A stretch of DNA of 64,000 bases from an uncultured Gammaproteobacteria bacterium (GCA_964445435.1 CAYUKU010000001.1:118942-182941), one strand, 5' to 3'; shown: positions 45,458 through 64,000, counted from the stretch's first letter. Notes: generated by a model from the letters alone, not told the origin. Made by a program: numbers and translations.

Positions 45458-45494
45458 CGCTTGTGAAACGTCGGGGTTGACAATGCCGACAAAA

Positions 45495-45523: not shown

Positions 45524-45550
45524 ACGCGGTGTAGCGTAAGGAGGATTCAT

Positions 45551-45880: not shown

Positions 45881-45904
45881 CAAGAGTCGTGCTACAATAG
45901 GCTC

Positions 45905-46249: not shown

Positions 46250-46264
46250 GATAATACGAATGTC

Positions 46265-47794: not shown

Positions 47795-47806
47795 ACAATT
47801 CGCCAA

Positions 47807-50800
47807 TCACGAATGACCGCCACCGCCACCCGCGCCTGAAGCATCCTGCACGCCCTTCTTTGCACTTCCAAATGCACCCATAGCAAGAAGCGCGCCTCCG
47901 ATAAGCACGAACGCATACGCATTATATAAGCGCACGGTCTTGAATCCTGCAATCTGAATCCCGAACTTCCGGTGCATTTTGTGGGTAAAGTCAGGCATGT
48001 GAGTATGAAACTTCGTCTCCAATGCCGCCTCTACCTCGTGCTCGAGATGGTCCAAATCCACCCGACCCATGGCCGGTGCTCCTTGCCCTACCGCGCGCTG
48101 AGCCGCAGAAAGATCCATCGTCGTTCGATCATCACTAATACCTGATAAGTCGGCCCACAAATCTTTCACAACGGCCTGACGCCAACCATAGAACAACGTC
48201 TGCCCGACCGGTGCCTTGGCGCCCTCATAGCCACCGCTGAAGAGAATCGTGTCCACAAACGGCTTGAAATGCTGCATGAATGTCTTGCCATCCTTGGCGC
48301 CCAGTATGCCGATAAGGTCCTTCGCCATGGCATTCACTGAGTTTTGCGTATCTCCGGCCCAGCGCGGTAATCCGCCACCCGCACCGTGACCGCCCCGCAC
48401 TGAACTGATACGACCGGACCATTTGAGTTCCTTGCGTTGATGATCGGGATTATTGTCCTTAATGCCGTCCAGAAATTTGATACGCGGGTCGATCGTGTTC
48501 ACGGTCGTGAAATGAGCGGCGTACGCGGGATTTGCAAGATCTTCGATAATATGGGGATTGAGAGCAAAATCCGATGCGGCCTTCATCACATCCAGGTACG
48601 CTTTTACGTTTTCTTCTGGCGTAAGACTGCTGTCGCCCGTGGCGACACAAACTTTTTTAAGTGCGGCCTGTTCATGCGGCGAATAGACGCTCATATCTCC
48701 ATTCCACTTGGAGTAGTCAATCGGCCCTTGCGGCGTTTCTATCAGTTTTCCCCCGCTCCATTCGCGGGTAAGCGCAAGCTCAGTGTCTACCATCGCCCGT
48801 CGCATTTCGGCAGCCTTGATGGCTCCCCGCACAAACTGTTCCGGATTATTCGCGTTATAGACAAGATTCTCGCCCATTGCCGCATCGTGGAACCGGCTGA
48901 ACAGTGCGGAATTTGTGGAAAACCATTCAAACGTCTTCTCATGCATCTTTTGAGCAAGCGCATCGATGCTTGCGATGGGATCAAACTTCCCCATTAAGAC
49001 GAATGTCTTGGTTTTGAGTGTCACCTCTGCATCATGAAACTTCTTATGATCTCCCGCAGTATCAAACAGGCCGCCTGCGTCCAGACGAGCCGTCTCGTGG
49101 AGCAGAACTCCATTCGTCATGCCGGTATCTGCGTCAACGACTTTATAGAGACCAAAGTCCTTGAGAGCATCGATCTGCGACCCTATTTGCCAACCGGAAT
49201 CTATGTAATGATACGCTCCTGAGAACCGGGCGTCCAAGAGCCGTCGCCCTTCCCGATAGATAATCTGCTCCTCCAAATCAGCCTTCGTCAGCTCTGAAAG
49301 CGTCTGGGGAGTTTGTCGTTGCAATCCCTCCCGAGTTCCGCCAAAGAGCTGACGCAGAAAACTGTCCTCTCTTCGTATGCGCAATGAGCCAAACGCTCGT
49401 GCGACTGTCGCCTGATCATCCAGATCGTTGATGTTGAAAGCCATTTTCACCAGACGGTTCCATTCCGCCTGCGCCGCCCGCCCCTCGGGTGTAGGCAAAT
49501 TCCGTATTTTGTCAAGCTGACCTAACCGCGCGCGCCAATACGTATCGAGACCCACCCGTGATGCTTCCACGGCAAACATCTTTCGCATGACGAGGGCACC
49601 GAAATCGCTCTTAATCGCCCACCGATCTACCAGCCATTTAAACGGGTTCATCGAGAAAATGATTTTTCCCTCTGCCGGTTGGCCAGCAAACTCAAGCGGA
49701 TTTCCACTCTGGTGCATCATCTCAATCGGGGTAGCGGCTTTGCCGAAGATCTGTGCGCGCTGACCAGTGGCTTCGATAAGCATCGAAACTTCTCTCACGG
49801 CCATCTCTATGTCCGTCTTCTCAATTCTACGCCGTATGATGCGTCCGTTTTCATCTTTTCTCACGTCTCCATTTGTGTCGTATTCAACGCTTCCTTCCCA
49901 CTCCTGAAACCGGTCATTATACATCCCCTTTTGAGTTTGAGCGTGTGCCCACATTTGATCGACTATTGCGTCTTCCATCACTTCAATTCTCCCTGCTGTT
50001 AACGCACGGATGTATCCGTTCTCATCCCAAATTTCTGCCGCAAAGCGCTGTTTAAACACGCCAAACACCTCAAGATTGAGTCCGTTACGCTCATTTAACG
50101 TGCGCGGATACCCCTCGTCGCCGAAAATCGCGTAAACGCTCTTAAGCTTGTCCATCTCCGTATCAAGCTCAAGGCCTCCTTTTAAACGCAATAGCGCGCC
50201 GCGGATAGAAATAGTTCTGGAGATCTCTTTATTCCATTCAAGATACCCCTCGTTCATTTCCCTGTACCACTTATGATTAGTGTTGAGGACGCGGTTGCCA
50301 TCGCTGTCCAAAACCGGACTTCCATCAGGACGGACTTGGTAGATCGACTCTCCGCTTATTTGCGTAATCTCATCCCAGTTTCTCGGATCCCTCAAGTAAG
50401 CGAGGCGATTTTTGCGGTAATCATCGCTTGCGGCGTATTGAATAAGCTGAGAGTAATTGCGGTCAGCGGCCTCTTCCCACTTTCCTTCAAAAACGTTCAC
50501 AGTGGCGTTTATGAAATCCTGCTTGCTTCTGGCAAACACATCCACCCCGCGCCATGACCGCTTCATTTCTTCCAGAGAAAGGTATAAGCTGCTCCATCCC
50601 CGCTCAAGCTCACGCTCGGTGTACCGTTCCCTTCCAACACTAAGCGCCGTCTCCCGGAATGTTTCATACTTTTGGGCCAACTCCGGCTGGTCCGCCATGA
50701 GCCGTCTCCATGTATAGCTATCAGTATTGTGGTCCTGCATGGCAGTCATAAAATCAAAAATCTCATTTCGTACCCGCGGATCGTTCATGTTCCCGTGAGC

Positions 50801-52078
50801 ATCATGAAGGATTTTGTTGAAATGCTCCAGGCGGGATTTGAGATTTCGTGCCGCTACCCGCTCGGCAGGAATTGCCCTTGGACCTGCCACTTTATCCAGA
50901 TACTTTAACGCACCCGCGCTAAATTCATCGCCTCCGGGCGCTCTGCGCCTCGCACCACGCGCTCTTCCGCGCCCCCGACTCGTCCCAGCGGTGCCGATTG
51001 CCTCAAGCGCATCCTCAGCCCGATCGCCAAACTCGGGACTCACCTCATCGTGGTACATCTGGGCGACCTTCTCGGCGAAGCGTTTACGGAACGTATCACG
51101 CTCGCGCACCTGCTCATCAGTTGATCCCTGCCCGAGCGCCTTAATCTGAGAGCCCTTGGCAAGCAAAAACTCCTTGGTCCACGCATCTTCGCCGGCCTGT
51201 GCAATGTCATACACAACCTGCGCAATATCGGGATCTTTTATCAGCTCGCCATCAGAAACCAACCAGGATAATTCATTCGTCGTTCGTATTGTTTCTTGTA
51301 TCTTCCGATTCGCTTCGGCAGGTTCAACCGTACGCGTAATTTCCGGTCCCAACTTAAAGTCATCTAGAATCTGCGTCTCCAGATCCTCCGCCCACGCTTG
51401 GGTGTTCTCGGGATGCGCGCTGTGTGCGTGGTAATACACTGCCTGCTCGTCTTTCGTAATGCGCTCCACGCTTGCGCCCTTAAACGCCGGGTCATTTTTC
51501 ACGACTTCATCAAACCTCTTTCCTGAAGAGCCCTTAATCGCATCCCAATTGCGATATCCCCATTCGTACGCCGCCTGCCGCACTTCTCGCAAAACCATCT
51601 GATCCGACTCGCTTAGAGTCGTCATCTGCGGCATGTCTTTGAGGATGGTGCGCACCTTCGTCCATTCCTCTGCGCTGGGCGTGCTCCAGTTAATTTCCGG
51701 CGGCTGTTTATTCGGCGAAAGGCGGCTGATGCCGCCCAAAAGCCGCTGGTTATCTATAGGAACCGACGCGCGGAACTGATCTGACACGAGTACCGTCATC
51801 TTCTGCTCCGCAGAAAGCGGAGATCCCGCCTCTTGTCCGGCACGGATCATGGCTTTGCGGACAACTTCCGTATCCTGAACTTTGGGCTGGGTTTCTCCTT
51901 TGGTTTGAGGCGAGACATCAGGAGCTTTTTTTGGTTCTACTTTCTTCCCTCGTTCTTTCGCCTTTGCCTGGGTATTTGCGGTTGCAGCTTCCGCCTGCAC
52001 GACCATCGGAAGCGGTTTGTTTTTCCCCGCGTTTTCAAAAAGCGATTTCAGTGCATCGAAGAGTTCTTTTGACGCCAT
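47807..52078 (-). CDS. Giant (1423 aa) tail-anchored hypothetical protein, no recognisable domains
   Basis: Single uninterrupted 4.27 kb ORF; Arg/Gly-rich patch SRGRGRARGARRRAPGG; single C-terminal TM helix LYNAYAFVLIGGALLAMGAF followed by a Gly-run; downstream of T4CP-like gene and nadD on the same strand. Confidence 0.6.
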   Translation of the reverse strand: MASKELFDALKSLFENAGKNKPLPMVVQAEAATANTQAKAKERGKKVEPKKAPDVSPQTKGETQPKVQDTEVVRKAMIRAGQEAGSPLSAEQKMTVLVSDQFRASVPIDNQRLLGGISRLSPNKQPPEINWSTPSAEEWTKVRTILKDMPQMTTLSESDQMVLREVRQAAYEWGYRNWDAIKGSSGKRFDEVVKNDPAFKGASVERITKDEQAVYYHAHSAHPENTQAWAEDLETQILDDFKLGPEITRTVEPAEANRKIQETIRTTNELSWLVSDGELIKDPDIAQVVYDIAQAGEDAWTKEFLLAKGSQIKALGQGSTDEQVRERDTFRKRFAEKVAQMYHDEVSPEFGDRAEDALEAIGTAGTSRGRGRARGARRRAPGGDEFSAGALKYLDKVAGPRAIPAERVAARNLKSRLEHFNKILHDAHGNMNDPRVRNEIFDFMTAMQDHNTDSYTWRRLMADQPELAQKYETFRETALSVGRERYTERELERGWSSLYLSLEEMKRSWRGVDVFARSKQDFINATVNVFEGKWEEAADRNYSQLIQYAASDDYRKNRLAYLRDPRNWDEITQISGESIYQVRPDGSPVLDSDGNRVLNTNHKWYREMNEGYLEWNKEISRTISIRGALLRLKGGLELDTEMDKLKSVYAIFGDEGYPRTLNERNGLNLEVFGVFKQRFAAEIWDENGYIRALTAGRIEVMEDAIVDQMWAHAQTQKGMYNDRFQEWEGSVEYDTNGDVRKDENGRIIRRRIEKTDIEMAVREVSMLIEATGQRAQIFGKAATPIEMMHQSGNPLEFAGQPAEGKIIFSMNPFKWLVDRWAIKSDFGALVMRKMFAVEASRVGLDTYWRARLGQLDKIRNLPTPEGRAAQAEWNRLVKMAFNINDLDDQATVARAFGSLRIRREDSFLRQLFGGTREGLQRQTPQTLSELTKADLEEQIIYREGRRLLDARFSGAYHYIDSGWQIGSQIDALKDFGLYKVVDADTGMTNGVLLHETARLDAGGLFDTAGDHKKFHDAEVTLKTKTFVLMGKFDPIASIDALAQKMHEKTFEWFSTNSALFSRFHDAAMGENLVYNANNPEQFVRGAIKAAEMRRAMVDTELALTREWSGGKLIETPQGPIDYSKWNGDMSVYSPHEQAALKKVCVATGDSSLTPEENVKAYLDVMKAASDFALNPHIIEDLANPAYAAHFTTVNTIDPRIKFLDGIKDNNPDHQRKELKWSGRISSVRGGHGAGGGLPRWAGDTQNSVNAMAKDLIGILGAKDGKTFMQHFKPFVDTILFSGGYEGAKAPVGQTLFYGWRQAVVKDLWADLSGISDDRTTMDLSAAQRAVGQGAPAMGRVDLDHLEHEVEAALETKFHTHMPDFTHKMHRKFGIQIAGFKTVRLYNAYAFVLIGGALLAMGAFGSAKKGVQDASGAGGGGGHS

Positions 52079-52147
52079 ACAAGCAAGTAAGTAGCGTTCT
52101 CGTACATTTATTCTACCCCGCCGCCTCTCTCATCGCAAGGGCACGCG

Positions 52148-52702
52148 CTATTTGTAAAGTCCGCGTGTTTCGAGGTATTCCACTATAGCCTTGGGCACGA
52201 ACTGGTCAATCGGCAAACCCCTTGCCACACGCTCCCGGATTTTTGTGGAAGAAATATTGCTGCCGATGAGAAGCTTATCTGTGATCACCTTCATTCCCTC
52301 ATAAAGTGGCTCATTGGGAAACCCATACCGGGGAAACACAAAAAACGGCATCTTTGAAAGTAATTTTTCCCAATCCAGCCACAAATGAAACGTCGGAAGC
52401 TGATCAGAGCCGATTATAAATGAAAATTCGTGTTCGTTGGGAAGATGCGGAAGAATATGTACCGTTTCTCCATCAAGCTTGTTATCAATCTCTATCGTCG
52501 ACACGCGCGTCCGCGGAGCGGTTAAGAGTCTCGTCATGGCAAGGCGGTCCTCAACCGGTGCAACCGGCTTGGGCGGCGACTGGGCGAAATTCGGCAGAAA
52601 CCACACCTCATCCATATCAGTAAAATCTAAAACCTGCTGGGCAATCATAAGATGCCCCAAGTGAGGAGGATTGAATGCACCGCCGAGAAGTGCCACTCGC
52701 AT
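52148..52702 (-). CDS. nadD: Nicotinate-nucleotide adenylyltransferase
   Basis: GGAFNPPHLGHL (HxGH) nucleotidyltransferase motif and C-terminal ISSTKIR motif. Confidence 0.85.
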   Translation of the reverse strand: MRVALLGGAFNPPHLGHLMIAQQVLDFTDMDEVWFLPNFAQSPPKPVAPVEDRLAMTRLLTAPRTRVSTIEIDNKLDGETVHILPHLPNEHEFSFIIGSDQLPTFHLWLDWEKLLSKMPFFVFPRYGFPNEPLYEGMKVITDKLLIGSNISSTKIRERVARGLPIDQFVPKAIVEYLETRGLYK

Positions 52703-52705
52703 AGA

Positions 52706-54892
52706 TTATTTATTCACCTTCTTGGCATACCGCTCGCGGGAGGAGCGGATGACTTTTTCTCTATTCTGGTTTCTGCTTCTGGGAAGGGGCAATGTCTTCG
52801 CAGAAAACGGCGAACTCGTGTGATTGTCAATTGACAGCTTCATGACGACCTCATAGTTACCCATCGCCACGAGCTCGTTTTCCTCATACTTCTCGCCGAA
52901 TTCCCGCGACAGAATCCGTGCGTCTGCCGCGCCCACCCCAAAGGAAACAATGGATCCCGCGTTGCCGAATATCGCCTTCTGGACATCTTCGTCAATCTGA
53001 CCAATATACTGGTTTGCAAGCGTCAAATCCAGGCGGTATTTACGCGCCTCGGAGAGAATTTTTATAAATGATGTGGTGGCGAAATTCTGAAACTCGTCAA
53101 CGTACAGATAAAAGTCGCGCCGCTCCCCTTCTGCCAGATATACGCGGTTCATAGCGGCAAGCTGCATTTTCGTGATGATCATGGCCCCCAGAAGCGCACT
53201 GCTGTCTTCTCCGAGCTTGCCTTGAGACAAGTTTACGAGAACTATCTTCCCCTGGTTCATCATGCTCTCAAGATCAACTGTTGACGTGGGGCTTCCGACG
53301 ATATTTCTGATTGTTTGTGATGAGAGAAACTGCCCGACCTTGTTGAGAATCGGCGACACTGCTTCTGAGCGCATTTGTGGCGACATTTTCGCAAACTCAT
53401 TGAGCCAGAAATTTTTGAGAACCTGGTCTGCCATCTTCTCAACGACCTTGCCGCGGTATTTTTCGTTGGTGAGAAGCTCGGGCACCTGAAGAAGCGTCGA
53501 ATTGGGAACATTCGTAAGGGTCAGAATGGTATTTCTCAGAATATATTCGAGCCGCGGCCCCCAGCTTAGGTGGTACAGTTTGTAAAAAATCGAAACGATG
53601 CCGCTACTGACCAGCTCGCGATAGGCCGTGTTTCTTACTTCCAGCGGATTCAGGTGAAATGGATACTCAATATCTGATGGGTCCAAATACGCAACGTCGT
53701 TAATGCGGTGCGATGGCACGTAATCCAAGAGGATATCCGTTAAGTCACCGTGAGGGTCGACGACGGCCACCCCTTCGCCGTTTTTCATGTCATTGATCGC
53801 CATATTGGCGATCATCGTTGATTTACCGGTACCCGTCTTTCCGACGATATACACATGTTTCCTGCGGTCTGCCTTCTTGATGCCAAATGTGGCGAGCTTG
53901 TTTTTGTATTCCGTGCGTCCGAAGAAGTTAATCTGCTTTTTCTCTTCCTCATTGTCCGTTGCCACGGGCAGATTCTCCGGAGCCTCACCGGTCAACTGGG
54001 AACCCCAGGAGATATTTTTAATCATGGAAAGCGCAAGTCCCGGCGGATGCCAGAGGGAGGCAAGCTCACTGGCGTTGAGAACCTGGAATCGGGGCGCAAC
54101 TGAACCGTTTCTCTCCACAAAGCCCTGTTCGAGTTTTTTCTTCTGCCAGAACGCGGGCTCGCTGATCACCAATCCGTTTCCCTCTCCCAACGTGTACACC
54201 CCAAACGTCCCACCCACTCCGTGAAGCAGCTCGTTTGCACGCGCGTCGGAGGCGGCCACCGACACGAGCCGAATTGCCGTTCCAAAACCAACCTGGGCGA
54301 TTTTGGTCTCAATGAGGCGCGCATGGGGATGGGCCTTCATGCGACCCGTCGTTGATGACGTGTCGGGAACTCCCCTTGCAACAATCGCGGAAGCCGAATG
54401 CTGCCAATTGGTTCCTGCCGGAGTAATGCGAAACTGGATAGCGACCGCCTCCCCAACCGGAAGCTTGGCCAGCTGTCCCAGAAGGCTTGCCAGAATATCC
54501 AAGTCTTTTACGTCTTTGTACGTTTTGAGAGGATAGTAGTACGCATTGGATAAGACGACCTGTGCAATCTTATGCGGAAGGGCGAGAAAGTGCGGCGCGT
54601 AATCCTCAACCGGCGCCAAAAGCACTTTCGGGTATTGCGCGGTCAGTTGACTCTCCACATACGTCTGGAGTGACGAAGGTACGCCGACGAAAAAATGAAT
54701 CCGCGAGTTGACGGCAACCAGCTCAAAACTGAAATACTTCGGCGCATGACGGGGACGAAACAACATGGAAAGAAACCCGCCATGGCCACCTCCGGCGCCT
54801 AGCGCGGCAAAAATCTGCTCCATTGCGGCAGGCGTTTCTTCTGAGTCGCGGCTATTTTTTACTTCCAGAAGCACAAACGGAGATTCCGTCAT
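52706..54892 (-). CDS. VirD4/TraD/TrwB-like type IV coupling protein-like ATPase (FtsK/HerA superfamily)
   Basis: Walker A IVGKTGTGKST...VVDPHGD; C-terminal block ILSEARKYRLDLTLANQYIGQIDEDVQKAIFGNAGSIVSFGV resembles the TrwB_AAD/T4CP DNA-binding ATPase motif; no obvious N-terminal TM (atypical for T4CP). Confidence 0.55.
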   Translation of the reverse strand: MTESPFVLLEVKNSRDSEETPAAMEQIFAALGAGGGHGGFLSMLFRPRHAPKYFSFELVAVNSRIHFFVGVPSSLQTYVESQLTAQYPKVLLAPVEDYAPHFLALPHKIAQVVLSNAYYYPLKTYKDVKDLDILASLLGQLAKLPVGEAVAIQFRITPAGTNWQHSASAIVARGVPDTSSTTGRMKAHPHARLIETKIAQVGFGTAIRLVSVAASDARANELLHGVGGTFGVYTLGEGNGLVISEPAFWQKKKLEQGFVERNGSVAPRFQVLNASELASLWHPPGLALSMIKNISWGSQLTGEAPENLPVATDNEEEKKQINFFGRTEYKNKLATFGIKKADRRKHVYIVGKTGTGKSTMIANMAINDMKNGEGVAVVDPHGDLTDILLDYVPSHRINDVAYLDPSDIEYPFHLNPLEVRNTAYRELVSSGIVSIFYKLYHLSWGPRLEYILRNTILTLTNVPNSTLLQVPELLTNEKYRGKVVEKMADQVLKNFWLNEFAKMSPQMRSEAVSPILNKVGQFLSSQTIRNIVGSPTSTVDLESMMNQGKIVLVNLSQGKLGEDSSALLGAMIITKMQLAAMNRVYLAEGERRDFYLYVDEFQNFATTSFIKILSEARKYRLDLTLANQYIGQIDEDVQKAIFGNAGSIVSFGVGAADARILSREFGEKYEENELVAMGNYEVVMKLSIDNHTSSPFSAKTLPLPRSRNQNREKVIRSSRERYAKKVNK

Positions 54893-55106
54893 GAGGCTAT
54901 AGTATCACAAAAATCGCAGGCTACGAGCTGCGTAAATAAGGGGCGAGAGAATAATTTGAAAGGCAACTGCGCGTTTGCGTGGCTTATCTTATGTTGCCCG
55001 TATATGAAACGCGCATTTAACGAGGATGGGATAGGCTTCCGCGATAAAACGAGGTCGCCAAGTGGGTCTTTGCAAATTCTTTCGCTCGCCCCTTTTAAAA
55101 ACCTTT

Positions 55107-55135
55107 CGTGAAAACTGAAAATGAGAGTTTTCACG
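55107..55135. promoter_or_regulatory. Perfect 10-bp inverted repeat (CGTGAAAACT-n9-AGTTTTCACG) in divergent T4SS promoter region
   Basis: Located in the 325-bp gap between the divergently transcribed T4CP-like gene and the PrgI-like gene, about 85 bp upstream of the PrgI-like ATG; candidate operator. Confidence 0.3.
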
Positions 55136-55218
55136 ATTCTGATGCGCTTTGTGCTATTGCGCTCGCGTCAAAATTACCCCAAAATAGTACTACCAGCCGA
55201 TAGTGCGGAGTTCTGTCT

Positions 55219-56631
55219 ATGGAACAACATCCGGTACCACAAAACGTCACCACATTTCAGTTTCGACTGATCGGCGACATGACCATTAAACAGTTCGGCT
55301 ATCTGGCCGGAGGAGCAATCTTGGCGTATATCTGCTATAAGCTCCCGCTGCCGTTTTTCTTCACCTGGCCCATGGCAACGATAGCAGCTCTCGCAGGTGT
55401 TGGATTTGCGTTCGTTCCGGTCGAGGAACGCCCAATGGACATCTGGGTCATGTCGTTCATAAAAAACGTCTACAACCCGACGCAATTTGTGTGGGAAAAA
55501 ACAGCCGAACCTCCAAAGCCCGCCCCCGCGGCTCCCCCAGCACCTCGACCTGTTGTTGCGCCGCATCCAAAACCAACCATGGGAACACCCGCACCCTCTG
55601 CGGTTTCCCACGCACAGCCTCAAGCTCCAGCCGCGCAAACAGGGCGCCAAGTCTCAGACGTCGTGGCGGGGATATTTACACAGCCAAAACCGACCCAGCC
55701 AATGCCAGCGCCCGTCGGGCAGACCGTGCCGACCCCTGCATATCATCCAAGCCAAACGGCAGGGAAAAAAGTTGGCCCCTTTGACTGGCTAGTCCGGCTA
55801 TTTGCACCAGCTGCGCGGCCCGCGACGAGCCCGCAACACGTGGTGCCCTATCAAAGCGCACCAACGTCGTTATCGGCTGCACCCTCAATTTCTGCTCCCT
55901 CGGTAACGGGCCGACATCTGGATCTCACGCCGCCGCCAAAAGTCGTTCCTACGGAAACGCAAATGGCAACGGTCCAAAAAAAGGAAACTGAGTTGGAAAC
56001 GAAACTTCAGGAACTGAAGGTAGAATTGGAAACCAAAACACAAACACAGGCGCGGGTGCTGGAACTGCAAAAACAGCTGACCGATATGCTCTCTGAGCGA
56101 GATCGCATGAGAAAAGAGCTCGAAGCGCTTCGCGCCAAAGCGGCGCCTCCCCCTGCGCCAACCGCCGTCGTACCGCCGAAGCCGGCAGACACAAATACGG
56201 TTGTCTCGACACCCCCTCCGCAAACTGCCGCAGCGCCCCAACGACCACAGGGTCCGACGGTCAAAATAATTACGCCTCAGGAGGCGGTGAAAGCAGGGCT
56301 TCCGCGGCTCACCACATTTCCCAACGTTGTCACGGGCATCACGCGCGATTCGGACAACAACCTCCTCCCCGGCGTTCTTGTCACCGTCAAGGACCACGAC
56401 GGCGTGCCGGTGCGCGCCCTGAAAACAAACCGACTGGGACAATTTGCTGCTTCAACACCGCTGGGGAACGGGGTATATTTCGTGGAGATCGAAGACCCGC
56501 GAGGCCGCTACACATTTGACCGCGTGCAGATCACGCTCAATGGATCCATTGTGCCCGCTCTCGAAATCATCGCAAAAAGCCAAAAGGAAGTCGCCCGCGA
56601 AAGGCTCGCCAAGGAAATTTTCGGAAGCTAA
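55219..56631 (+). CDS. PrgI-like T4SS membrane protein with long Pro-rich linker, coiled coil and C-terminal beta-sandwich-like domain
   Basis: N-terminus FQFRLIGDMTIKQFGYLAGGAILAYICYKLPLP matches the PrgI-family motif and two-TM topology; then about 150 aa Pro/Ala-rich low complexity, a coiled coil (about 250-300) and a C-terminal about 110-aa domain. Confidence 0.55.
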   Translation: MEQHPVPQNVTTFQFRLIGDMTIKQFGYLAGGAILAYICYKLPLPFFFTWPMATIAALAGVGFAFVPVEERPMDIWVMSFIKNVYNPTQFVWEKTAEPPKPAPAAPPAPRPVVAPHPKPTMGTPAPSAVSHAQPQAPAAQTGRQVSDVVAGIFTQPKPTQPMPAPVGQTVPTPAYHPSQTAGKKVGPFDWLVRLFAPAARPATSPQHVVPYQSAPTSLSAAPSISAPSVTGRHLDLTPPPKVVPTETQMATVQKKETELETKLQELKVELETKTQTQARVLELQKQLTDMLSERDRMRKELEALRAKAAPPPAPTAVVPPKPADTNTVVSTPPPQTAAAPQRPQGPTVKIITPQEAVKAGLPRLTTFPNVVTGITRDSDNNLLPGVLVTVKDHDGVPVRALKTNRLGQFAASTPLGNGVYFVEIEDPRGRYTFDRVQITLNGSIVPALEIIAKSQKEVARERLAKEIFGS

Positions 56632-56632
56632 T

Positions 56633-57292
56633 ATGGTACAAAAAATTATTCCCATAAGATCGACAACCCAACTGTTCGTTGAAATTGAAACGATCGACCA
56701 CGACATAGTCGTATATCAGGATGGCTCGGCCAGCCTCGTCATCACCACAACAGCGGTTAACTTTGGCCTTCTGTCTGAGCGGGAACAGGACGCAATCATT
56801 ACCGCATACGCGGGACTTCTTAATTCGCTGTCCTTCCCCATTGAGATTCTTATACGCACGCAGCATAAAGACGTGACTGCATACCTGCGGCTTCTGGAAG
56901 AACAGGAACGCAAACAGAAAAACCCCAAGCTCCAAAAAAGTATCCATGACTACCGGCTGTTCGTGGCAGCAACTGTCAAGGAGAAGGATGTACTAGATAA
57001 GAAATTCTATATCATCATTCCGTTTTCGAACCTGGAGCTGGGAGCTTCCCCAACTGTATTGTTCGGCAGCAAGAAGAAAGGCCTGCCATATCCACTCTCA
57101 TATATTTTCGAACGCGCATTGACCGTCCTCAACCCGAAACGCGACCATATCCTACGACTTCTTAACCGCGTCGGACTTCAAGCAAGTCAATTGACAAACC
57201 AACAGCTGGTAAAGCTCTTTTTTACAACCTATAACGCGGGGGTTCCATTGCCCGATGACGAAACAGTAACCCACGCGCTTACCCGTACATGA
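56633..57292 (+). CDS. Hypothetical T4SS-associated protein (220 aa), possibly VirB4 N-terminal-domain-like
   Basis: Starts 1 nt after PrgI-like stop and ends 1 nt before VirB4 ATG; no ATPase motifs; ORF-track N-terminal extension (from 56444) overlaps the PrgI-like gene and is rejected. Confidence 0.45.
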   Translation: MVQKIIPIRSTTQLFVEIETIDHDIVVYQDGSASLVITTTAVNFGLLSEREQDAIITAYAGLLNSLSFPIEILIRTQHKDVTAYLRLLEEQERKQKNPKLQKSIHDYRLFVAATVKEKDVLDKKFYIIIPFSNLELGASPTVLFGSKKKGLPYPLSYIFERALTVLNPKRDHILRLLNRVGLQASQLTNQQLVKLFFTTYNAGVPLPDDETVTHALTRT

Positions 57293-57293
57293 T

Positions 57294-59216
57294 ATGAGCA
57301 TAAAAGCAGCACTCAGAAAAATCATTGACCCGATGCCGGAAGAGAAACCGGTCAATCAGACGGTACATACCGAAAACTTGACTGTGAAGGATATTATAGC
57401 CCCTCCCTCAATTGATGTAGACTTTGACCATCTGAAAATAGGCAATTACTACTACCGCACGCTCTTTGTGGCAGGGTACCCGCGGTTTGTAAGTGCCAAC
57501 TGGCTTGAGCCGCTTATCTCCTTCAACCATACGCTTGATATCGCCATGTATGTGTACCCAACCAGAAGTGAAGAGGTGTTGGAAAATCTGAAGCGTAAAG
57601 TGGGAGAAATGGAGGCGACCATCCAGTCCGACATGAAGCGCGGCAGAGTAATCGAACCGTCCATCCAGGTAGCCCTTGAAGACGCCCTTGCGCTTCAACA
57701 AGAGCTCGCCAAAGGAGCACAACGGTTCTTCCAGTTCGGACTCTATGTCACTATTCCCGCAAAAAGCCTGGACGACCTCAATAAGGCAACCAAGCAGGTC
57801 GAGGCAACGCTCGCCTCGCTTCTTATCGTCACCAAACGGGCAACGCTCCAGATGGAGGAGGGTCTCAAGACTACGCTTCCGATGGGCCAGGACCGTATCG
57901 TTATCACGCGAAACATGGACACCACGTCCCTGGCAACCACCTTCCCTTTCACGACAAGCGAGTTGACCGCAAACGAAGGAATCCTCTACGGGATCAACTC
58001 GCACAACGATAGCCTGGTGGTATTTGACCGGTTTACGCTCGAAAATGCCAACACCGTCGTCTTCGGAAAATCGGGCTCGGGAAAAAGCTACATGGTGAAA
58101 CTGGAAATCCTGCGAAGTCTCATGTTTGATACCGAAGTGATCGTCATCGACCCCGAGAACGAATACGAAACGCTTACGCGAGCGCTCGGCGGCGAGTATA
58201 TCCGGTTCCACTTCGGTACGAATACGAAAATCAACCCTTTCGACATCGCCCTTTTGCATCAAACCGGGTCGGGTCAGGGAGACAGCGAGCTGAATCAAAA
58301 AATACTTTCGCTTCATGGGTTTTTTCGTGTCGTTATGGGAAAACTGACACCCACGGAAGACGCGCTTCTTGATCGTGCGCTTATCCTTGCGTACAAACAA
58401 AAGGGCATAACGCCCGACCCCACCACACAAAGCAAAGAGCCTCCCCTGATGGAAGATCTTTATAAAACGCTCGTTGGCATGGAGGATTCGATTGCGCGGG
58501 GGCTTGCCGATCGCATTGAAAAATTCGTAAAAGGAAGCCTGGTTGGAATCTTCGATCAACAAACCAATGTGGCCATCAGAAACCAGCTCACCGTGTTCTC
58601 CATACGGGATCTCGAAGACGAACTTCGCCCGATTGCCATGTATCTTATCCTCGATTTCATCTGGACCAAGGTGCGCCGCGATACGAAACGCCGAATTCTC
58701 ATCGTTGACGAGGCGTGGTACATGATGAAATTCCCGGATTCCGGCGCCTTCCTCAACTCCATCGCCAAACGTGCACGCAAGTATTATCTTGGCCTTACGA
58801 CGATCACCCAGGACGTCGAAGACTTCCTTTCAGTCGAGCTTGGGAAAACAATCATCCAAAACAGCAGCTTGCAAATCCTCCTTAAGCAATCAACGGCGGC
58901 CATAGACCGCGTCGGAGAGGTGTTCTTCCTGTCTGAAGGGGAAAAACAACTTCTCCTGTCGGCAAACGTAGGGGAGGGGCTGTTTTTCGCAGGGCCCTCA
59001 CACGCCGCAATTCGCGTGATTGCCTCCCCACAGGAGCACGCCATTATAACAACCAAGCCGCAGGATTTGGCAGCACAGAGGGCCGCACAGAACGCACCCC
59101 GGTCTCCCGCGCCTTCCGGCACCATCGTGCCGGGCGCCGTCAAACCAACACCGCCAGCCTCTGGAACAACAAATAGACCCATCTTTACGGTAGAATCAGT
59201 AAACGGAGCGCAATAA
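57294..59216 (+). CDS. VirB4-family T4SS ATPase (Gram-positive TraE/PrgJ-like length)
   Basis: Walker A VVFGKSGSGKSYM, Walker B RILIVDEAWYMM, N-terminal YYRTLFVAGYPRFV...WLEPL block typical of VirB4/TraE; 640 aa. Confidence 0.8.
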   Translation: MSIKAALRKIIDPMPEEKPVNQTVHTENLTVKDIIAPPSIDVDFDHLKIGNYYYRTLFVAGYPRFVSANWLEPLISFNHTLDIAMYVYPTRSEEVLENLKRKVGEMEATIQSDMKRGRVIEPSIQVALEDALALQQELAKGAQRFFQFGLYVTIPAKSLDDLNKATKQVEATLASLLIVTKRATLQMEEGLKTTLPMGQDRIVITRNMDTTSLATTFPFTTSELTANEGILYGINSHNDSLVVFDRFTLENANTVVFGKSGSGKSYMVKLEILRSLMFDTEVIVIDPENEYETLTRALGGEYIRFHFGTNTKINPFDIALLHQTGSGQGDSELNQKILSLHGFFRVVMGKLTPTEDALLDRALILAYKQKGITPDPTTQSKEPPLMEDLYKTLVGMEDSIARGLADRIEKFVKGSLVGIFDQQTNVAIRNQLTVFSIRDLEDELRPIAMYLILDFIWTKVRRDTKRRILIVDEAWYMMKFPDSGAFLNSIAKRARKYYLGLTTITQDVEDFLSVELGKTIIQNSSLQILLKQSTAAIDRVGEVFFLSEGEKQLLLSANVGEGLFFAGPSHAAIRVIASPQEHAIITTKPQDLAAQRAAQNAPRSPAPSGTIVPGAVKPTPPASGTTNRPIFTVESVNGAQ

Positions 59217-59219
59217 TCC

Positions 59220-61535
59220 ATGGCCACACAACAACAGTCTCCCCTGCCGCTTTCGGACTTTCTTTCAGAGGTAGTCCGGGCAATTGACGATCACCAGGAA
59301 GTATCTCTTGCCGCCATACTTGCTCACGCGGAAGAATATCAGGAACTACGGGATTTCATGCTTAAGAATCCCGAATGGGTGGCAGGGGTTATGATCGAGG
59401 AGCCGAAGGATGGGCTTGCAAAAATTCGGGAACTTTTTTCCGACCCGAAAGAAATTCTTGCTCAAATCGCCCCCCGCGGCGCTGAGGGACTCTCCCAATT
59501 CGTCGAACCAGAAGCACGGTTTGCGCAGAGCCTTCCGATCGGAGAGGTAACGCCAGCACGGGAAAAAGCATGGGAAGACCTTATCACGCACGATCGGGCA
59601 CTTTTGGCAAAAAAGGTCGCCAAAACGAGAAAAACCACCCAGGAATTCTTTCATAAGATCCACACCATCCGCGCGTATGGCACCCCGGAGGCCGCAGAAG
59701 AAATGAAGAAAGTGGAGCATGAAGTACATCTCAAAAACTTCGAAGAAATACGTAAAGAGCTTATAGAAATCGCGCGAAAACGCGGCAACAAAGAGGATGT
59801 AAAAGAAGCGGAAGAAATTATCGAACGTTTCGTGCCGCAAATAACATCAGAGGACCTCACGGAACCAATTCGTCTGGCTACCGCCACCTCCAAAACAGTA
59901 CTTGAACACCCGGATGTGGAAAACACCGTTATCATCGCTGAATCCATCGAGCGCGGAGACGCCGCGCGTGATGCCGTACGACTTTCCCGTATCGCCACGG
60001 CCATTGAGCACCCGGTGCAAAACGTGCGCGAGATTCCTCTGAGGGCAGCGTTTGAAGACGTGGCGGGAACCGTACTTCCGAACACTCAAGACGTAGTAGA
60101 CCGGATCTTTTCCAATACGTGGCGCGCCACGACAACAGCCGAGTCCTTCGTCGGCAACATGACGCAGCGTCTCGGAGAAGAAGCGGTAAACAGTCCTGAA
60201 TTTAAAGGCCTTATAGAACGGGGAAACGCATATGCAAGACAACGGTCAGCGTCTGGTGGAAATGTGCTAAGCGGATTGTTTTCCATACCCAAGGAGCCGG
60301 ATCCGGATATGGAGGCCTACCTTGAGGCCGTCTATAAAAAAGTCGGCGGAGGGGAATTCGGCAGCAATGATTTCTTTGCGGGCAAAGCCTACGCCAATCA
60401 TCCGGATCATTTCCACTTCGAATTCGAATCACCCTTCAATATACTATTCCGATTCGGCGCAAGGGAAGAAGCGGCCACGGTTGCGCGCGGCACTGCCGGA
60501 GCAGTAACCCGGACCGGTCTGGGTGCATGGACAAAAGAGTCTATCAAAAAACTCGGAGCGAATTTTCTCGCTAAATTCGGAATACAGGCTGGCGGCAAAC
60601 TCGCGGCTGTTCTCAGCGGACCGGTTGGATGGGTTATTTTCGCCGTTACCATCGTATTGCCGTACGTATGGGACTGGGTAAAACGCGCCGGCGGCAAGAT
60701 CATGAGCGCAGTCGGCGGAGGCATCATCGGTGGCGTGAGAGCGGCAAGCGAAGGGTTTGCAGCGAGCTGGGCGGCGTTTCTGCAAACATACGCAAAATAC
60801 AAGGACCCGGTGCCAACCTGGGTTGTCATTGCTGCCATGGTAGCCTCCCCTGTTTTGATTGCACTTCCGATAACATCGCTTTTTCCTTCAACCGCAAGCC
60901 AAACACAAGTCAGAAGAGCAGCAGTGCTCTCGGTTGGGGGCGGCGGGGTTGTGCCCGTCCCCCAGGCGTGTGACCCGGCAACAGATCCCACGTGTGTGCC
61001 GCTATTCTGCGACCCGTCCAAACAAAGCTGTGAGTGGCCCACGCCGTGCGGGTGCATCACTCAGGGGCCCAATTCTGGGGGGTCACACTCGGGACTCAAT
61101 GCAATCGACATCGGAACAAACGGCGGCGCGTGCAGCCAATCGTATGATGGAAACCCGCCAAGTAGTCCTCCAGTATACGCCGCGTGTGCGGGAACGATCA
61201 CCCGCGCGTATTTCGGACTCGGAGACGGAGAAATTTGTAAAGACTTCCGAAGTGCGAAGTGCGGATACGGATATGGCAACAACGTATATCTCAATTGCAC
61301 CGACGGGAAAACACAATTTATCTATGGCCATCTCCTCAAACCCGGCCCCGGAATTTCACAGGGGGCATCCGTACAGCAAGGGCAAGTCCTCGGGTATGTT
61401 GATAACAACGGCAACTCTACCGGACCTCACCTTCATTTCGAATATCGCGGAGTAAACGGCGCCAGCGTACAGGATATTACAAAAATTCTCCCGCCCGAAT
61501 ACGCACTCGGGTATTGCTGGTCGGGAGGAAGATAA
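59220..61535 (+). CDS. T4SS-associated cell-wall hydrolase: large protein with two TM helices and C-terminal M23 (LytM-type) peptidase domain
   Basis: C-terminal HSGLNAIDIG (H-x-x-x-D) and GPHLHFEYR (HxH) M23 zinc-binding motifs; central TM helices; 771 aa; functional analog of VirB1/PrgK/TcpG-type hydrolases. Confidence 0.7.
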   Translation: MATQQQSPLPLSDFLSEVVRAIDDHQEVSLAAILAHAEEYQELRDFMLKNPEWVAGVMIEEPKDGLAKIRELFSDPKEILAQIAPRGAEGLSQFVEPEARFAQSLPIGEVTPAREKAWEDLITHDRALLAKKVAKTRKTTQEFFHKIHTIRAYGTPEAAEEMKKVEHEVHLKNFEEIRKELIEIARKRGNKEDVKEAEEIIERFVPQITSEDLTEPIRLATATSKTVLEHPDVENTVIIAESIERGDAARDAVRLSRIATAIEHPVQNVREIPLRAAFEDVAGTVLPNTQDVVDRIFSNTWRATTTAESFVGNMTQRLGEEAVNSPEFKGLIERGNAYARQRSASGGNVLSGLFSIPKEPDPDMEAYLEAVYKKVGGGEFGSNDFFAGKAYANHPDHFHFEFESPFNILFRFGAREEAATVARGTAGAVTRTGLGAWTKESIKKLGANFLAKFGIQAGGKLAAVLSGPVGWVIFAVTIVLPYVWDWVKRAGGKIMSAVGGGIIGGVRAASEGFAASWAAFLQTYAKYKDPVPTWVVIAAMVASPVLIALPITSLFPSTASQTQVRRAAVLSVGGGGVVPVPQACDPATDPTCVPLFCDPSKQSCEWPTPCGCITQGPNSGGSHSGLNAIDIGTNGGACSQSYDGNPPSSPPVYAACAGTITRAYFGLGDGEICKDFRSAKCGYGYGNNVYLNCTDGKTQFIYGHLLKPGPGISQGASVQQGQVLGYVDNNGNSTGPHLHFEYRGVNGASVQDITKILPPEYALGYCWSGGR

Positions 61536-61550
61536 GGCTATACTGATACT

Positions 61551-62564
61551 ATGCGACTGTCCACAAAAACGATAACGATCATTGGAATATTCGTCGTCAC
61601 GCTTTTGGTGGCTTTTTGGCTTGCAGCTCGACAAGAAAAACCGACTACAAAAACACCCTCTCCCTCCCCCAACACAGGGACAGCGCCCAGAGAAATTCCT
61701 GCGCTTATTTCCGGTCCTATCCAAAATAAGCAGCCGTCGGTCCGATTTGTCTTGTCATTCCCACCAATATCCGTCCCGGAAACGCTTCCTGTTTACTCAA
61801 CAAAGGAGCCAGACATGACCGCGTCGTGGACTACCATTGCCCAAAATCTCGGTTTCTCGGGGCCCGGCACGAGCCCGAAAGACCAGCCAACCATGCGCTG
61901 GTGGATAAATTCCGCCGGCACTCTAAAAGTATATTCATCTCCCCCCAGTGTCGCGTTTACCGCGCAACGGGATCTTGTCGGCCCTCCAACAGAGATTGAG
62001 GCCAATGGTGCCCTTTCAGCGTTTGTTTCCAAAACGGGCATTCTTGGCGGAGCAGTAAGCTTCGTCCCGACCCCGGTCCAATATGTGACAGTGGAAGGGT
62101 CAAGCTATCTTCCCGCTGCTGACAAAACGAAAGCGTCTATGGCAATCGCGTCGCTCGACTATCGAATCAACAACATGCCGCTGTATGCCGCATCAGGACT
62201 TCCGTATGAGGCTGTGGGACAGGTGCATGCGGGCGGAACGCTTCGCTCTGCCATGGTCCCTGCGCCGCCAATTATCCTGTCCTCCGCAGAAAAGCAAACC
62301 ATTGCTCTTTCTGCAGCCGCAACGCACTTATCAAACAACAGGGGAACCCTTGTCAGTATCCGCGCTTCGACGCCGGGAGAAACCTCGATAAGTGAAATCA
62401 ATTTCTCGACCGTACTTATCACGAAGGCGTCACTTGTATATCTTTATGTGAACAGGGCGGAACAAATCCTTCCGGTCTATCTTTTTGAGGGAAGCGTTAC
62501 AAGCGGAGAGGGAGACTCCCGCGGGGCCGTTGCCGCATTCTTCGTGCCTGCAACGTATAATTAA
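61551..62564 (+). CDS. Membrane-anchored extracytoplasmic protein, hypothetical (last gene of T4SS-like operon; VirB8-like topology)
   Basis: N-terminal TM IGIFVVTLLVAFWLAA, Pro/Thr/Ser-rich linker, about 270-aa soluble domain. Confidence 0.45.
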   Translation: MRLSTKTITIIGIFVVTLLVAFWLAARQEKPTTKTPSPSPNTGTAPREIPALISGPIQNKQPSVRFVLSFPPISVPETLPVYSTKEPDMTASWTTIAQNLGFSGPGTSPKDQPTMRWWINSAGTLKVYSSPPSVAFTAQRDLVGPPTEIEANGALSAFVSKTGILGGAVSFVPTPVQYVTVEGSSYLPAADKTKASMAIASLDYRINNMPLYAASGLPYEAVGQVHAGGTLRSAMVPAPPIILSSAEKQTIALSAAATHLSNNRGTLVSIRASTPGETSISEINFSTVLITKASLVYLYVNRAEQILPVYLFEGSVTSGEGDSRGAVAAFFVPATYN

Positions 62565-62568
62565 AGCG

Positions 62569-63672
62569 CTAGTTCTGCACCCGAACCGGCATGATGATAT
62601 GAAGGTAAGAATCGTCTTTTGCCGGGCGAAACACGCCCGGATTAAGTGATCCGGTCATTTCAAACAACACCTCGTCTGAGGGGAAATTTGAAAGACACTC
62701 GAGAAGAAAACGGCTATTTATCGCCATGTCTCCACCATCTCCGTCCACCTTCGCATCTACGGCGACCTCATTTTCTCCAATCTGCGGCGCATTTGCCGAA
62801 ACGGTAACCGTCTGGTTTTCTACATGAAGCTTTATGATGTTTGCATTGTCCCGCGCAAAAATTGCGGCTGACTTCACAGCACGGAATAGGGCGTCCCTTT
62901 CAAATAATATCCGCGTGTTCCACTTGGTGGGAATTATTTTTTCAAAGTTGGGATAATCCCCTTCTATGAGGCGCGCGTGAAGGTCCGTATCTCCGATAAC
63001 AAACACAAGCTGTCCGGCCGCAGGACTATTCATATAGATTTCTTTTACGTCTTTTTCTTCCTGGCTTATTTTCGTAACCTCAGCAAGCGCGCGAGCGGGA
63101 ACAAGAAGATCCAACGGTTCTTTTGTGGCAAGGTTGATTCTCTTTAAGGAAAGCCGGTATCCGTCTGTAGCCGCAAAAAGCGTTTCCCCGTCCCTTTGAA
63201 GAACCCGAACGCCCGTCAGAAGCGGGCGCCCCTCGTCTGTGGCAGCAGAAAATATCACTTGCGCCACCGCGGTTACGAATTCGTCTTTCGCAAGCTCCGA
63301 TCCTTTCTTCTCCGACACGGAAGCCTGGGGAAATTCGCTCTCCGGGACGCCTGGAATAATCGCCTTCACACCCTGGGTTTTCACCGTTAGGCTCCCCTCT
63401 TTCACCGCAAGACTCACGGGCGTCTGAGGAAGTGATGCGACAAGCTCAAGAAGAAGTCGGGAAGAAACACATATGCCGCCCTCTTTCTCCACTTTTGCGC
63501 CAAGCCAAACTGTTTCTGTAGTTTCAAGGTTTGTAACAGTTATGCGAAGTCTTCCCTCTTTGGCAGACAGAAGAATGTTTGAGAGGATGGGTAGTTGCGG
63601 CTTAGAAGAAACGATCCTCCCCGTTCTAATAAGTGCTCGCAGCAGGTTTTCTTGTAAAAGAGAAACAATCAT
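62569..63672 (-). CDS. dnaN: DNA polymerase III beta subunit (sliding clamp)
   Basis: 367 aa; three-domain clamp length; N-terminal LLRALIRTGRIVSSKPQLPILSNILL typical of DnaN; immediately downstream of dnaA. Confidence 0.9.
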   Translation of the reverse strand: MIVSLLQENLLRALIRTGRIVSSKPQLPILSNILLSAKEGRLRITVTNLETTETVWLGAKVEKEGGICVSSRLLLELVASLPQTPVSLAVKEGSLTVKTQGVKAIIPGVPESEFPQASVSEKKGSELAKDEFVTAVAQVIFSAATDEGRPLLTGVRVLQRDGETLFAATDGYRLSLKRINLATKEPLDLLVPARALAEVTKISQEEKDVKEIYMNSPAAGQLVFVIGDTDLHARLIEGDYPNFEKIIPTKWNTRILFERDALFRAVKSAAIFARDNANIIKLHVENQTVTVSANAPQIGENEVAVDAKVDGDGGDMAINSRFLLECLSNFPSDEVLFEMTGSLNPGVFRPAKDDSYLHIIMPVRVQN

Positions 63673-63873
63673 ACAAATCTGTTATGTGTTATTAGTAGTA
63701 ATAATAAGAAAGCGGTGTGGAAAAGTGTATGGTAATTTGCGCTGGCTGTCAACGGGTTGTTGTGACGCCTAGTTTTTGAATTTTTTGCAGGGACAAAAAG
63801 GTGTTGATTACCGGTGGATATCTGTGTGGATAAATTTGGAATTTTTGTGGAAAAGTGGAAAACCGAGAACGGG
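63673..63873. other. oriC: Putative chromosomal replication origin (oriC) segment: dnaA-dnaN intergenic region with DnaA boxes and AT-rich DUE-like stretch
   Basis: Perfect DnaA box TGTGGATAA (63825-63833, revcomp TTATCCACA), two TGTGGAAAA boxes (63716-63724, 63846-63854) and an adjacent AGTGGAAAA; AT-rich run TTATGTGTTATTAGTAGTAATAATAAGAAAG at 63675-63705. Confidence 0.55.
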
Positions 63874-64000
63874 TTATGCCCACACATTTTGTTTTATCCC
63901 CGAAACCGCCTCCCTGAGACGTTCGTTTGTGGACAACTCGCGCGTTATGGTTTCCACGCCATGCATGATCGTGGTATGATCGCGGCCACCGAGCGCACCG
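63874..64000 (-). CDS. dnaA: Chromosomal replication initiator protein DnaA, C-terminal 41 codons (5' part beyond window)
   Basis: Minus-strand frame from 63999 reads GALGGRDHTTIMHGVETITRELSTNERLREAVSGIKQNVWA-stop; GGRDHTT(V/I)xH is the DnaA domain IV signature; stop TAA at 63874-63876. Confidence 0.75.
   Translation of the reverse strand, partial: GALGGRDHTTIMHGVETITRELSTNERLREAVSGIKQNVWA

Follow-up and report, generated by a model that had tools for sequence, protein, structure and literature searches.

A conjugation-type type IV secretion gene cluster beside the probable replication origin of a Gottesmanbacteria genome

The occurrence of genes for a conjugation-type type IV secretion system (T4SS) next to dnaN and dnaA raises the question of whether such a cluster is a mobile element that lies beside the origin by chance or a resident chromosomal machine and, if it is resident, what it might move and between which cells. 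The question was addressed for the divergent unit at positions 52706-62564 of a 64-kb stretch of DNA (GCA_964445435.1, CAYUKU010000001.1:118942-182941), referred to here as the window, the numbering of which is used throughout. The window comes from a Candidatus Gottesmanbacteria genome (class Microgenomatia, Patescibacteria or Candidate Phyla Radiation, CPR), and the unit is very probably the Gottesmanbacteria copy of the Patescibacteria-clade T4SS, a system derived from MPF_FATA conjugation machinery, chromosomally fixed beside oriC and vertically inherited. The locus is real and well conserved, and its kind of system was already published between 2023 and 2025. A preliminary description, made from the sequence, had read the cluster as a domesticated host-interaction machine and not as an integrative and conjugative element (ICE); this reading is correct but had already appeared in print (Wang 2023; Quinonero-Coronel 2025; a 2025 FEMS review).

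All of the open reading frames (ORFs) named in that description were recovered by ORF listing and translation, and the divergent unit was found as described, with an ATPase resembling a type IV coupling protein (T4CP) encoded on the minus strand and the PrgI-like, 219-residue, VirB4, M23 and membrane-anchored proteins encoded on the plus strand (Table 1). The plus-strand genes form a five-gene operon in the order PrgI/VirB3-like, TrsD-like, VirB4, M23 hydrolase and 337-residue protein, with gaps of 1, 1, 3 and 15 nt. On the minus strand, the gene of the 728-residue ATPase is followed in the same direction by nadD (3-nt gap) and then by an ORF of 1423 residues (69-nt gap). The spacer separating the two units is presumed to hold promoters for both directions; a sigma-70 consensus scan of 44001-64000 gave 18 promoter-like sites where 15.6 were expected, with none in this spacer, and the promoter and terminator consensus scan of the window was uninformative.

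The assignment of VirB4 is solid at the sequence level. The protein scored 403.6 bits against the NCBIfam model conju_CD1110 (cut-off 325), covering profile positions 178-729 of 752, and matched Pfam P-loop_TraG at 9e-26; its nearest solved structure was the Firmicute VirB4 4ag5 (2.6e-47), as against 1e-8 for the Gram-negative TrwK, and Walker A and Walker B motifs were located at residues 258 and 468. Because the conju_CD1110 match begins at profile position 178, the N-terminal part of VirB4 is missing from this ORF. The gene directly upstream provides it. Its product, the start codon of which is the ATG at 56633 (not 56630), 1 nt past the stop of the PrgI-like gene, matched positions 102-234 of NCBIfam VirB4_plasma, a full-length mycoplasma VirB4 model (2.6e-6), and, below the cut-off, NCBIfam TrsD NF041427 (2e-4); in addition, a precomputed match to Pfam PF26593 ("TraC-like") is recorded for the identical protein of an identical public contig (L081), which extends 5 kb past the window. 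These matches identify the protein, which had been listed as an unknown of 220 residues, as a TrsD-type VirB4 N-domain, so that the ORF itself stood while its length became 219 residues and its label was replaced. Judged by its family matches, it is homologous to the N-terminal domain of full-length VirB4/TraC but encoded as a separate protein, and the VirB4 motor is accordingly split, with the TrsD-like protein supplying the ~177 N-terminal profile positions absent from the VirB4 ORF.

The first gene of the operon encodes a membrane protein that matched PF12666 (PrgI) with 32.6 bits (cut-off 27; 1.2e-7). Its N-terminal PrgI domain, with about 2 transmembrane (TM) helices, is followed by a Pro-rich linker and a coiled coil, and the C-terminal ~115 residues make up a further, conserved domain. 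A weak CarboxypepD_reg match was obtained at residues 371-427, and the N- and C-terminal domains share one ORF in 74 of 75 related Microgenomatia loci. The protein is 4-5 times longer than a classical VirB3.

The arrangement of these genes was followed across related genomes. A scan of one genome per species returned 549 relatives confirmed by tblastn, the best 80 of which (L001-L080) were inspected; the counts given below out of 80 were obtained by tblastn of the window proteins. These 80 loci belong to metagenome-assembled genomes (MAGs) of Gottesmanbacteria and other Microgenomatia or Patescibacteria, with VirB4 proteins 58-93% identical to that of the window. The record titles of many of the nearest MAGs read "uncultured Gammaproteobacteria", Nevskiaceae or Alphaproteobacteria; as their loci are of the Gottesmanbacteria/Microgenomatia type, these public titles are evidently wrong. 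The PrgI-TrsD-VirB4 block was present in the same order, with PrgI in 77, TrsD directly 5′ of VirB4 in 79 and VirB4 in all 80 loci. In 62 loci dnaN lay within a few kb downstream, and the convergent orientation seen in the window was kept in all but a few. The M23 protein, the 337-residue protein and the 1423-residue protein are the fast-evolving members of the neighbourhood.

Neither a relaxase nor an integrase was found among ~55 ORFs across the window, which were searched with Pfam and NCBIfam models and not with dedicated MOB profiles, in agreement with what had been noted before; the relaxase search took in a further 5 kb. The scanned window ORFs are ordinary chromosomal genes, including dnaG, rpoD, pilB/pilC, smpB, uppS and those of a mevalonate pathway. 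The repeats around the cluster were short and imperfect, at the level expected by chance, and the nearest tRNA genes are situated at 22-27.6 kb, more than 16 kb away. In tetranucleotide usage, 5-kb segments over the core departed from the window mean by z values of -0.2 to 1.2, and the GC content at third codon positions (GC3) of the core genes was like that of dnaG, rpoD and dnaN; the segment 47001-52000, which holds the 1423-residue ORF, was a mild outlier (z = 2.1). Direct repeats and a foreign composition, both of which the preliminary description had proposed to look for, are thus not seen, the repeats being at chance level and tetranucleotide usage and GC3 matching those of housekeeping genes. 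Since mobility genes, flanking repeats and a compositional anomaly of the core are lacking, while the block is syntenic and accompanied by dnaN in most loci, the locus is vertically inherited. The earlier claim of a domesticated chromosomal machine that is not an ICE therefore holds, its gene order and its site on the side of dnaN recurring in most of the 80 related species.

The position next to the origin, which had also been claimed, is supported on several counts. The dnaN gene is convergent with the T4SS operon across a gap of 4 nt, and beyond it the 3′ end of dnaA was found at 63877-64000 on the minus strand (C-terminus GGRDHTTIMHG...), the full-length gene being present on the identical public contig. 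Four DnaA-box-like sites, one of them perfect, lie at 63716-63936, and two more were located 5′ of dnaA on that contig; altogether 9 such sites were found where 2.1 were expected, concentrated in the spacer between dnaA and dnaN and directly 5′ of dnaA. The GC skew turns from negative to positive at about 62.7-63.7 kb. The replication origin is therefore probably in the dnaA-dnaN region, and the DnaA boxes and the skew switch would place the end of the T4SS operon ~1 kb from it, with transcription running towards it. The five-gene operon (55219-62564) is oriented head-on to the replication fork, and the unit of the T4CP-like ATPase, nadD and the 1423-residue protein is co-directional with it, as are most genes of the window.

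The ATPase on the other side of the divergent spacer was above the Pfam gathering cut-offs for TrwB_AAD_bind, TraG-D_C and DUF87, and it matched the NCBIfam VirD4-like CD1115 model at 1.7e-10, but missed the NCBIfam equivalog cut-offs (40 bits versus 250). Its Walker B motif is of the DEF type, and TrwB and DotL were its top PDB sequence matches. The T4CP-type assignment made previously thus held up in the profile searches, as did that of VirB4. A TM scan of the 728 residues gave no hydrophobic segment, so that the N-terminal TM anchor of a canonical T4CP is absent; the first 330 residues form a soluble alpha/beta N-domain, for which PF26449 is precomputed on homologues (a literature search for PF26449 returned nothing). 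By its sequence, the protein is accordingly best called T4CP-like and not a canonical T4CP. A structural model gave full-length VirB4 as the best structural match, and a VirB4-like architecture may be taken as a lead; the model was built on a low-diversity alignment (74-92% identity) and is of low confidence (mean predicted local distance difference test, pLDDT, 53.7; ATPase core below 50). Homology of the N-domain to the TrsD/VirB4 N-domain was rejected by sequence (hhalign probability <1%), and only the low-confidence fold comparison points to it.

T4CP-like matches were obtained in 28 of the 80 loci. Twenty-six of these are among L001-L030, 25 of them divergent as in the window and one (L028) on the plus strand, while L073 and L076 carry distant copies, ~37% identical, about 7 kb upstream. 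The Gottesmanbacteria clade typically has its VirD4-family gene right beside virB4 genes in divergent orientation. Across 27 of the L001-L030 loci the ATPase is 67-95% identical (42% in L028), and it is as conserved as VirB4.

Downstream of VirB4, the M23 protein begins with a large N-terminal domain, followed by 2-3 TM segments at residues 460-557 and a Cys-rich linker; its M23 metallopeptidase domain is C-terminal (PF01551, 1.4e-14 over residues 647-749; HLH motif at 737). Its domain content suggests that it is a functional stand-in for VirB1, and an iterative search placed the family 3′ of VirB4 in 32 of the 80 loci. The 337-residue protein encoded last in the operon had no Pfam or NCBIfam match. 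Comparison of its predicted structure indicated that the ectodomain has a YycI/YycH/PepSY-like fold, with an identity of 8-14% to the top six structural matches; the model was built on an alignment of 5 rows, the homology search having returned only 4 sequences. A VirB8-like protein (PrgL, TraM, TcpC; NTF2-like fold) was considered for this gene and ruled out, the fold being YycI/PepSY-like, and no VirB8-like or NTF2 structure was among the top 60 structural matches. Of the 80 loci, 19 have a member of this family; all 19 also have the M23 gene, and the family member lies between it and dnaN each time. PepSY-type domains are known to accompany and restrain lytic enzymes, as in YpeB-SleB and the propeptides of M4 peptidases. 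By analogy, and because the PepSY-like fold goes together with this 19/19 co-occurrence, the 337-residue protein probably partners or regulates the M23 hydrolase. Its ectodomain may thus be likened in fold to the WalK regulators YycI and YycH of B. subtilis, to YpeB-SleB and to the M4 propeptides, although the identity is as low as stated above and no histidine kinase gene is adjacent here.

Two further components are encoded upstream of the divergent unit. All six genes of a tandem array encode proteins matching PF18895 (T4SS_pilin), 4 of them above the cut-off of 26.6 bits (best 3e-13), and an additional pair of VirB2-like pilins, 24-42% identical to those of the array, is encoded 9 kb away from it between a SpoIID-domain gene and uppS. 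The pilin paralogues of the window are 23-46% identical to one another, and the genome has at least 8. In 21 of the 80 loci, an array of this kind likewise precedes the VirB6-like gene. The array of the window is followed by the gene of a 509-residue protein, for which a hydropathy scan showed at least 5 hydrophobic segments and which has an N-terminus resembling a signal sequence; its family was found in 34 of the 80 loci, and where the position was inspected (L008, L019 and L026 among others) it comes just 3′ of the top pilin matches. The protein is a candidate VirB6 equivalent on the grounds of topology and position, both of which fit the "VirB6-like" label given to it earlier, while the profile support for that label is lacking. 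Among weak matches, NCBIfam pLS20_p028 was obtained at 0.0087 and Pfam TrbL at 0.013 in 1 of 18 family members.

The minus-strand unit, an apparent operon in which the T4CP-like, nadD and 1423-residue genes would be co-transcribed, combines a housekeeping gene with a lineage-specific one. The nadD gene lies between the other two; it was found in 23 of the 80 loci, all within L001-L030, and its adjacency to the T4CP-like gene is kept in these 23. The 1423-residue protein has no signal peptide, a single C-terminal TM helix (residues 1387-1406) and a Gly-rich tail. Neither it nor 17 relatives gave a match in Pfam, NCBIfam or the PDB, and when 1.84 billion representatives were scanned exhaustively with HMMER, only 20 relatives, restricted to the lineage, emerged. 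It is hypervariable, being 46% identical in L001 as compared with 93% for VirB4 there, whereas most related loci do have a large minus-strand ORF at this position, next to the VirB6-like gene.

How do these components compare with systems that have been described? A survey of CPR genomes placed a Patescibacteria clade of VirB4 within MPF_FATA and found it in 2417 of 3035 genomes (Quinonero-Coronel et al. 2025; PMC12102498). In that survey, TrsD, PrgI/VirB3, VirB6, peptidases and arrays of VirB2-like pilins, the latter especially in Microgenomatia and Saccharimonadia, were encoded near virB4, relaxases were almost always absent, and dnaA/dnaN were often close (PMC12102498). The present locus resembles these systems in its monoderm VirB4 with adjacent TrsD and PrgI/VirB3, its VirB2-like array, the peptidase 3′ of virB4 that replaces a classical VirB1, the lack of a relaxase and the site at dnaA/dnaN. 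It differs in that a VirD4-family gene stands directly and divergently beside the operon, T4CP homologues having been found near virB4 in 148 of 5713 cases (PMC12102498), and in that the gene of this ATPase seems to form an operon with nadD and the gene of the lineage-specific 1423-residue protein. For Microgenomatia, the survey reported VirB3 as rarely linked to virB4 and VirB6 as scarce (PMC12102498); in contrast, a PrgI-like gene was adjacent in 77 of the 80 loci inspected here, and the polytopic candidate was conserved in 34.

With the Firmicute MPF_FATA systems (Trs of pGO1, Prg/Pcf of pCF10, CD1110/CD1115 of CTn2 and Tra of pIP501), the locus shares a VirB4 above the CD1110 cut-off, homologues of PrgI and TrsD, a VirD4-like ATPase of the CD1115 type, a membrane-bound hydrolase and the absence of outer-membrane core proteins. 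Unlike in those systems, no relaxase or oriT, no PrgB-type adhesin and no VirB8-like protein (PrgL/TraM) were found, VirB2-like pilins, which Gram-positive systems lack, are encoded, the T4CP-like ATPase has no N-terminal TM domain, and the locus is chromosomal and vertically inherited. The description of the cluster as a near-complete minimal Gram-positive-type T4SS was therefore overstated, as a VirB8-like component was not found, VirB6 had been inferred and the T4CP-like ATPase lacks a membrane anchor. The crenarchaeal Ced system and ComB of H. pylori are likewise relaxase-free T4SS derivatives built around a VirB4-family ATPase, and weak matches to CedB and CedD were obtained; these are far below the family cut-offs, however, no CedA or ComB-specific part was found, and the VirB2-type pilins together with PrgI and TrsD point to a bacterial monoderm ancestry.

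A working scheme can be proposed from these assignments. In the cytoplasmic membrane, PrgI and the VirB6-like protein would provide the docking site for hexamers of VirB4/TrsD, and this motor would extract the variable VirB2-type pilins; these would be built into a pilus or channel that passes through an opening made by the M23 hydrolase, the activity of which might be tempered by the PepSY-like partner. The pilus or channel would contact the host cell on which the epibiont lives, and the machine would most likely move proteins or other macromolecules between epibiont and host, with the T4CP-like ATPase possibly acting as the substrate-feeding motor. Because there is no relaxase, the cargo would not be a conjugative plasmid. 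The idea of a domesticated machine put forward in the preliminary description is the main conclusion of the CPR survey (PMC12102498), and in the Saccharibacterium Southlakia epibionticum the homologous cluster SEML1_0006-0019 is essential for epibiotic growth (Wang 2023, Cell, PMC10633639; also PMC12857230) and has no recognisable coupling protein or relaxase (PMC10633639). Reviews have speculated on effector delivery or uptake of host molecules (PMC11665869, PMC12857230).

Several points weigh against the preferred reading of a vertically inherited Patescibacteria-clade T4SS that serves the contact with a host. The expected placement of VirB4 inside the Patescibacteria clade rests on nearest neighbours and the best-scoring family model. 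The 509-residue protein, even when searched as a family, had no significant VirB6-, TrbL- or PrgH-type profile or PDB match, no VirB8-like component was found, and the relaxase search covered the 64 kb of the window plus 5 kb of the genome. To our knowledge, no experiment exists for any Microgenomatia system. For the Saccharibacteria system itself, the function has been stated to be "completely unknown" (PMC11665869). The link of the T4CP-like ATPase to the channel is uncertain, given that the protein has no anchor and that its homologue in S. epibionticum, t4cp, is not essential while the channel genes are (PMC12102498).

An unlikely alternative is that the machine is an importer comparable to Ced or ComB, which would bring host DNA or nucleotides into a cell unable to make nucleotides, with the T4CP-like ATPase as the translocating motor. 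It draws on the secondary NCBIfam matches of VirB4 to CedB (9.5e-15) and of the T4CP-like ATPase to CedD (2.8e-9), both archaeal DNA-import proteins, and on the proposal of nucleotide uptake via the T4SS, which was made as comEC is dispensable in S. epibionticum (PMC11665869, PMC12857230). Those matches, however, extend over generic ATPase regions with scores far below cut-off, no CedA-like or ComB-specific component was identified, the supposed motor gene is the one that S. epibionticum can lose while it needs the channel genes (PMC12102498), and import has so far been without experimental demonstration.

It appears rather improbable that the locus makes an attachment organelle and translocates no substrate, with VirB4 building VirB2-type pili of variable antigenicity or receptor specificity for host recognition. 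The eight divergent pilin paralogues, with identities of 23-46%, would fit such a role, pilin arrays are typical of Microgenomatia and essential in S. epibionticum (PMC12102498, PMC12857230), and most other Microgenomatia have no T4CP-like ATPase gene at this locus. On the other hand, the window also has type IV pilus genes (pilB, pilC and a ComGD-like pilin), type IV pili already give Saccharibacteria their adhesion (PMC12857230), and the conservation of the T4CP-like ATPase across the Gottesmanbacteria-clade loci, L028 (42%) apart, argues for a working substrate-side motor. An ICE or a decaying remnant of one that lies beside the origin by chance is extremely improbable: the parts do descend from monoderm conjugation systems, with a VirB4 of the CD1110/CTn2 type and a VirD4-like ATPase, and 47001-52000 stands out mildly in tetranucleotide usage, but relaxase, integrase, att-like repeats and an adjacent tRNA gene are all missing, composition and GC3 are core-like, the housekeeping gene nadD lies inside the unit, dozens of species share this gene order at this site and have a VirB4 that equals core genes in conservation, and relaxases occur in only 103 of 3035 CPR genomes, with only 15 of those genes close to virB4 (PMC12102498).

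Within the preferred reading of a host-contacting Patescibacteria-clade T4SS, the system could have gained a lineage-specific substrate module in Gottesmanbacteria, made up of an anchor-less ATPase that joins T4CP sequence motifs to a VirB4-like two-domain architecture and of the giant 1423-residue protein, which would be the dedicated cargo or the host-contact component. This is a long shot; if true, the giant protein would be the first concrete candidate substrate of a Patescibacteria T4SS. As a fast-evolving, tail-anchored protein of this size, positionally coupled to the T4SS in Gottesmanbacteria, it is a candidate host-interaction factor. The locus otherwise adds no new principle. It offers a clean and complete Microgenomatia example, with a role or fold assigned to each gene of the unit, of a machine that is among the few which a cultivated CPR bacterium is known to require for life as an epibiont. 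Two of its features may be kept in mind, namely that the PepSY/YycI-like M23 partner sits where a VirB8-like protein might be expected, and that the so-called coupling protein has no membrane anchor and may be VirB4-like in architecture.

Table 1. Position, strand and basis of assignment of the features of the T4SS locus and its neighbourhood in the 64-kb window.
Feature	Position	Strand	Basis or remark
T4CP-like (VirD4-family) P-loop ATPase, 728 aa	52706-54892	-	Pfam
Divergent intergenic region, 326 bp	54893-55218		Between T4CP-like and PrgI-like genes; position only
PrgI/VirB3-like membrane protein, 470 aa	55219-56631	+	PF12666
TrsD-like protein, 219 aa	56633-57292	+	NCBIfam VirB4_plasma, TrsD; PF26593
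VirB4 ATPase, monoderm (MPF_FATA, CD1110) type, 640 aa	57294-59216	+	NCBIfam, Pfam, PDB
M23 cell-wall hydrolase, 771 aa	59220-61535	+	PF01551, TM scan
Membrane-anchored protein, 337 aa	61551-62564	+	One N-terminal TM helix, Pro-rich linker, YycI/YycH/PepSY-like ectodomain
dnaN (DNA polymerase III beta clamp)	62569-63672	-	Three beta-clamp Pfam domains, 1e-24 to 1e-27
dnaA-dnaN spacer with DnaA-box cluster, and dnaA 3′ end	63673-64000	-	Probable origin region
nadD-like nicotinate-nucleotide adenylyltransferase	52148-52702	-	Pfam CTP_transf_like 1e-20
Orphan protein, 1423 aa	47807-52078	-	Convergent with VirB6-like gene
Polytopic protein, candidate VirB6 equivalent, 509 aa	46265-47794	+	Hydropathy scan
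Six tandem VirB2-like pilin genes	43980-44369, 44371-44721, 44725-45096, 45101-45457, 45551-45880, 45905-46249	+	PF18895
Two further VirB2-like pilins, 154 and 122 aa	34490-35324	+	PF18895, 8.6e-5 and 1.4e-8

Elsewhere in the window, the type IV pilus genes are situated at 1857-2354 and 9139-11995 and encode a pilC-like T2SSF protein, a pilB-like T2SSE protein with an MshEN domain and a ComGD-like minor pilin; a response regulator and a seven-transmembrane (7TM) histidine kinase are encoded near them. At 4586-8678, genes for a ThiF-family protein, a 488-residue protein with weak similarity to acyl-CoA ligases and an aromatic amino acid ammonia-lyase stand in a row and may constitute a small-molecule modification cluster. 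The region 35326-42833 holds a cluster that resembles a complete mevalonate pathway in a CPR genome, with genes for a thiolase, an HMG-CoA-synthase-like protein, HMG-CoA reductase, two GHMP kinases and diphosphomevalonate decarboxylase, plus uppS.

The lowest GC content of the window (0.46-0.48) was found at 17000-22000, together with a strongly positive AT skew and the largest tetranucleotide outlier (z = 2.4). This region contains 3-4 large ORFs (18008-19666, 19554-20627 and 20697-21977), two of which have no family match; for the ORF at 19554-20627 only a sub-threshold match to SGNH/GDSL esterases was obtained, and a tRNA-Ser gene lies at 22112. Six tRNA genes, four for tRNA-Ser and two for tRNA-Arg, are distributed over 22112-27564, including a pair of tRNA-Ser genes that abut each other (27385-27476 and 27477-27564). 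As the PAP2-like ORF at 26807-27559 overlaps this pair, its true start must be located further downstream.

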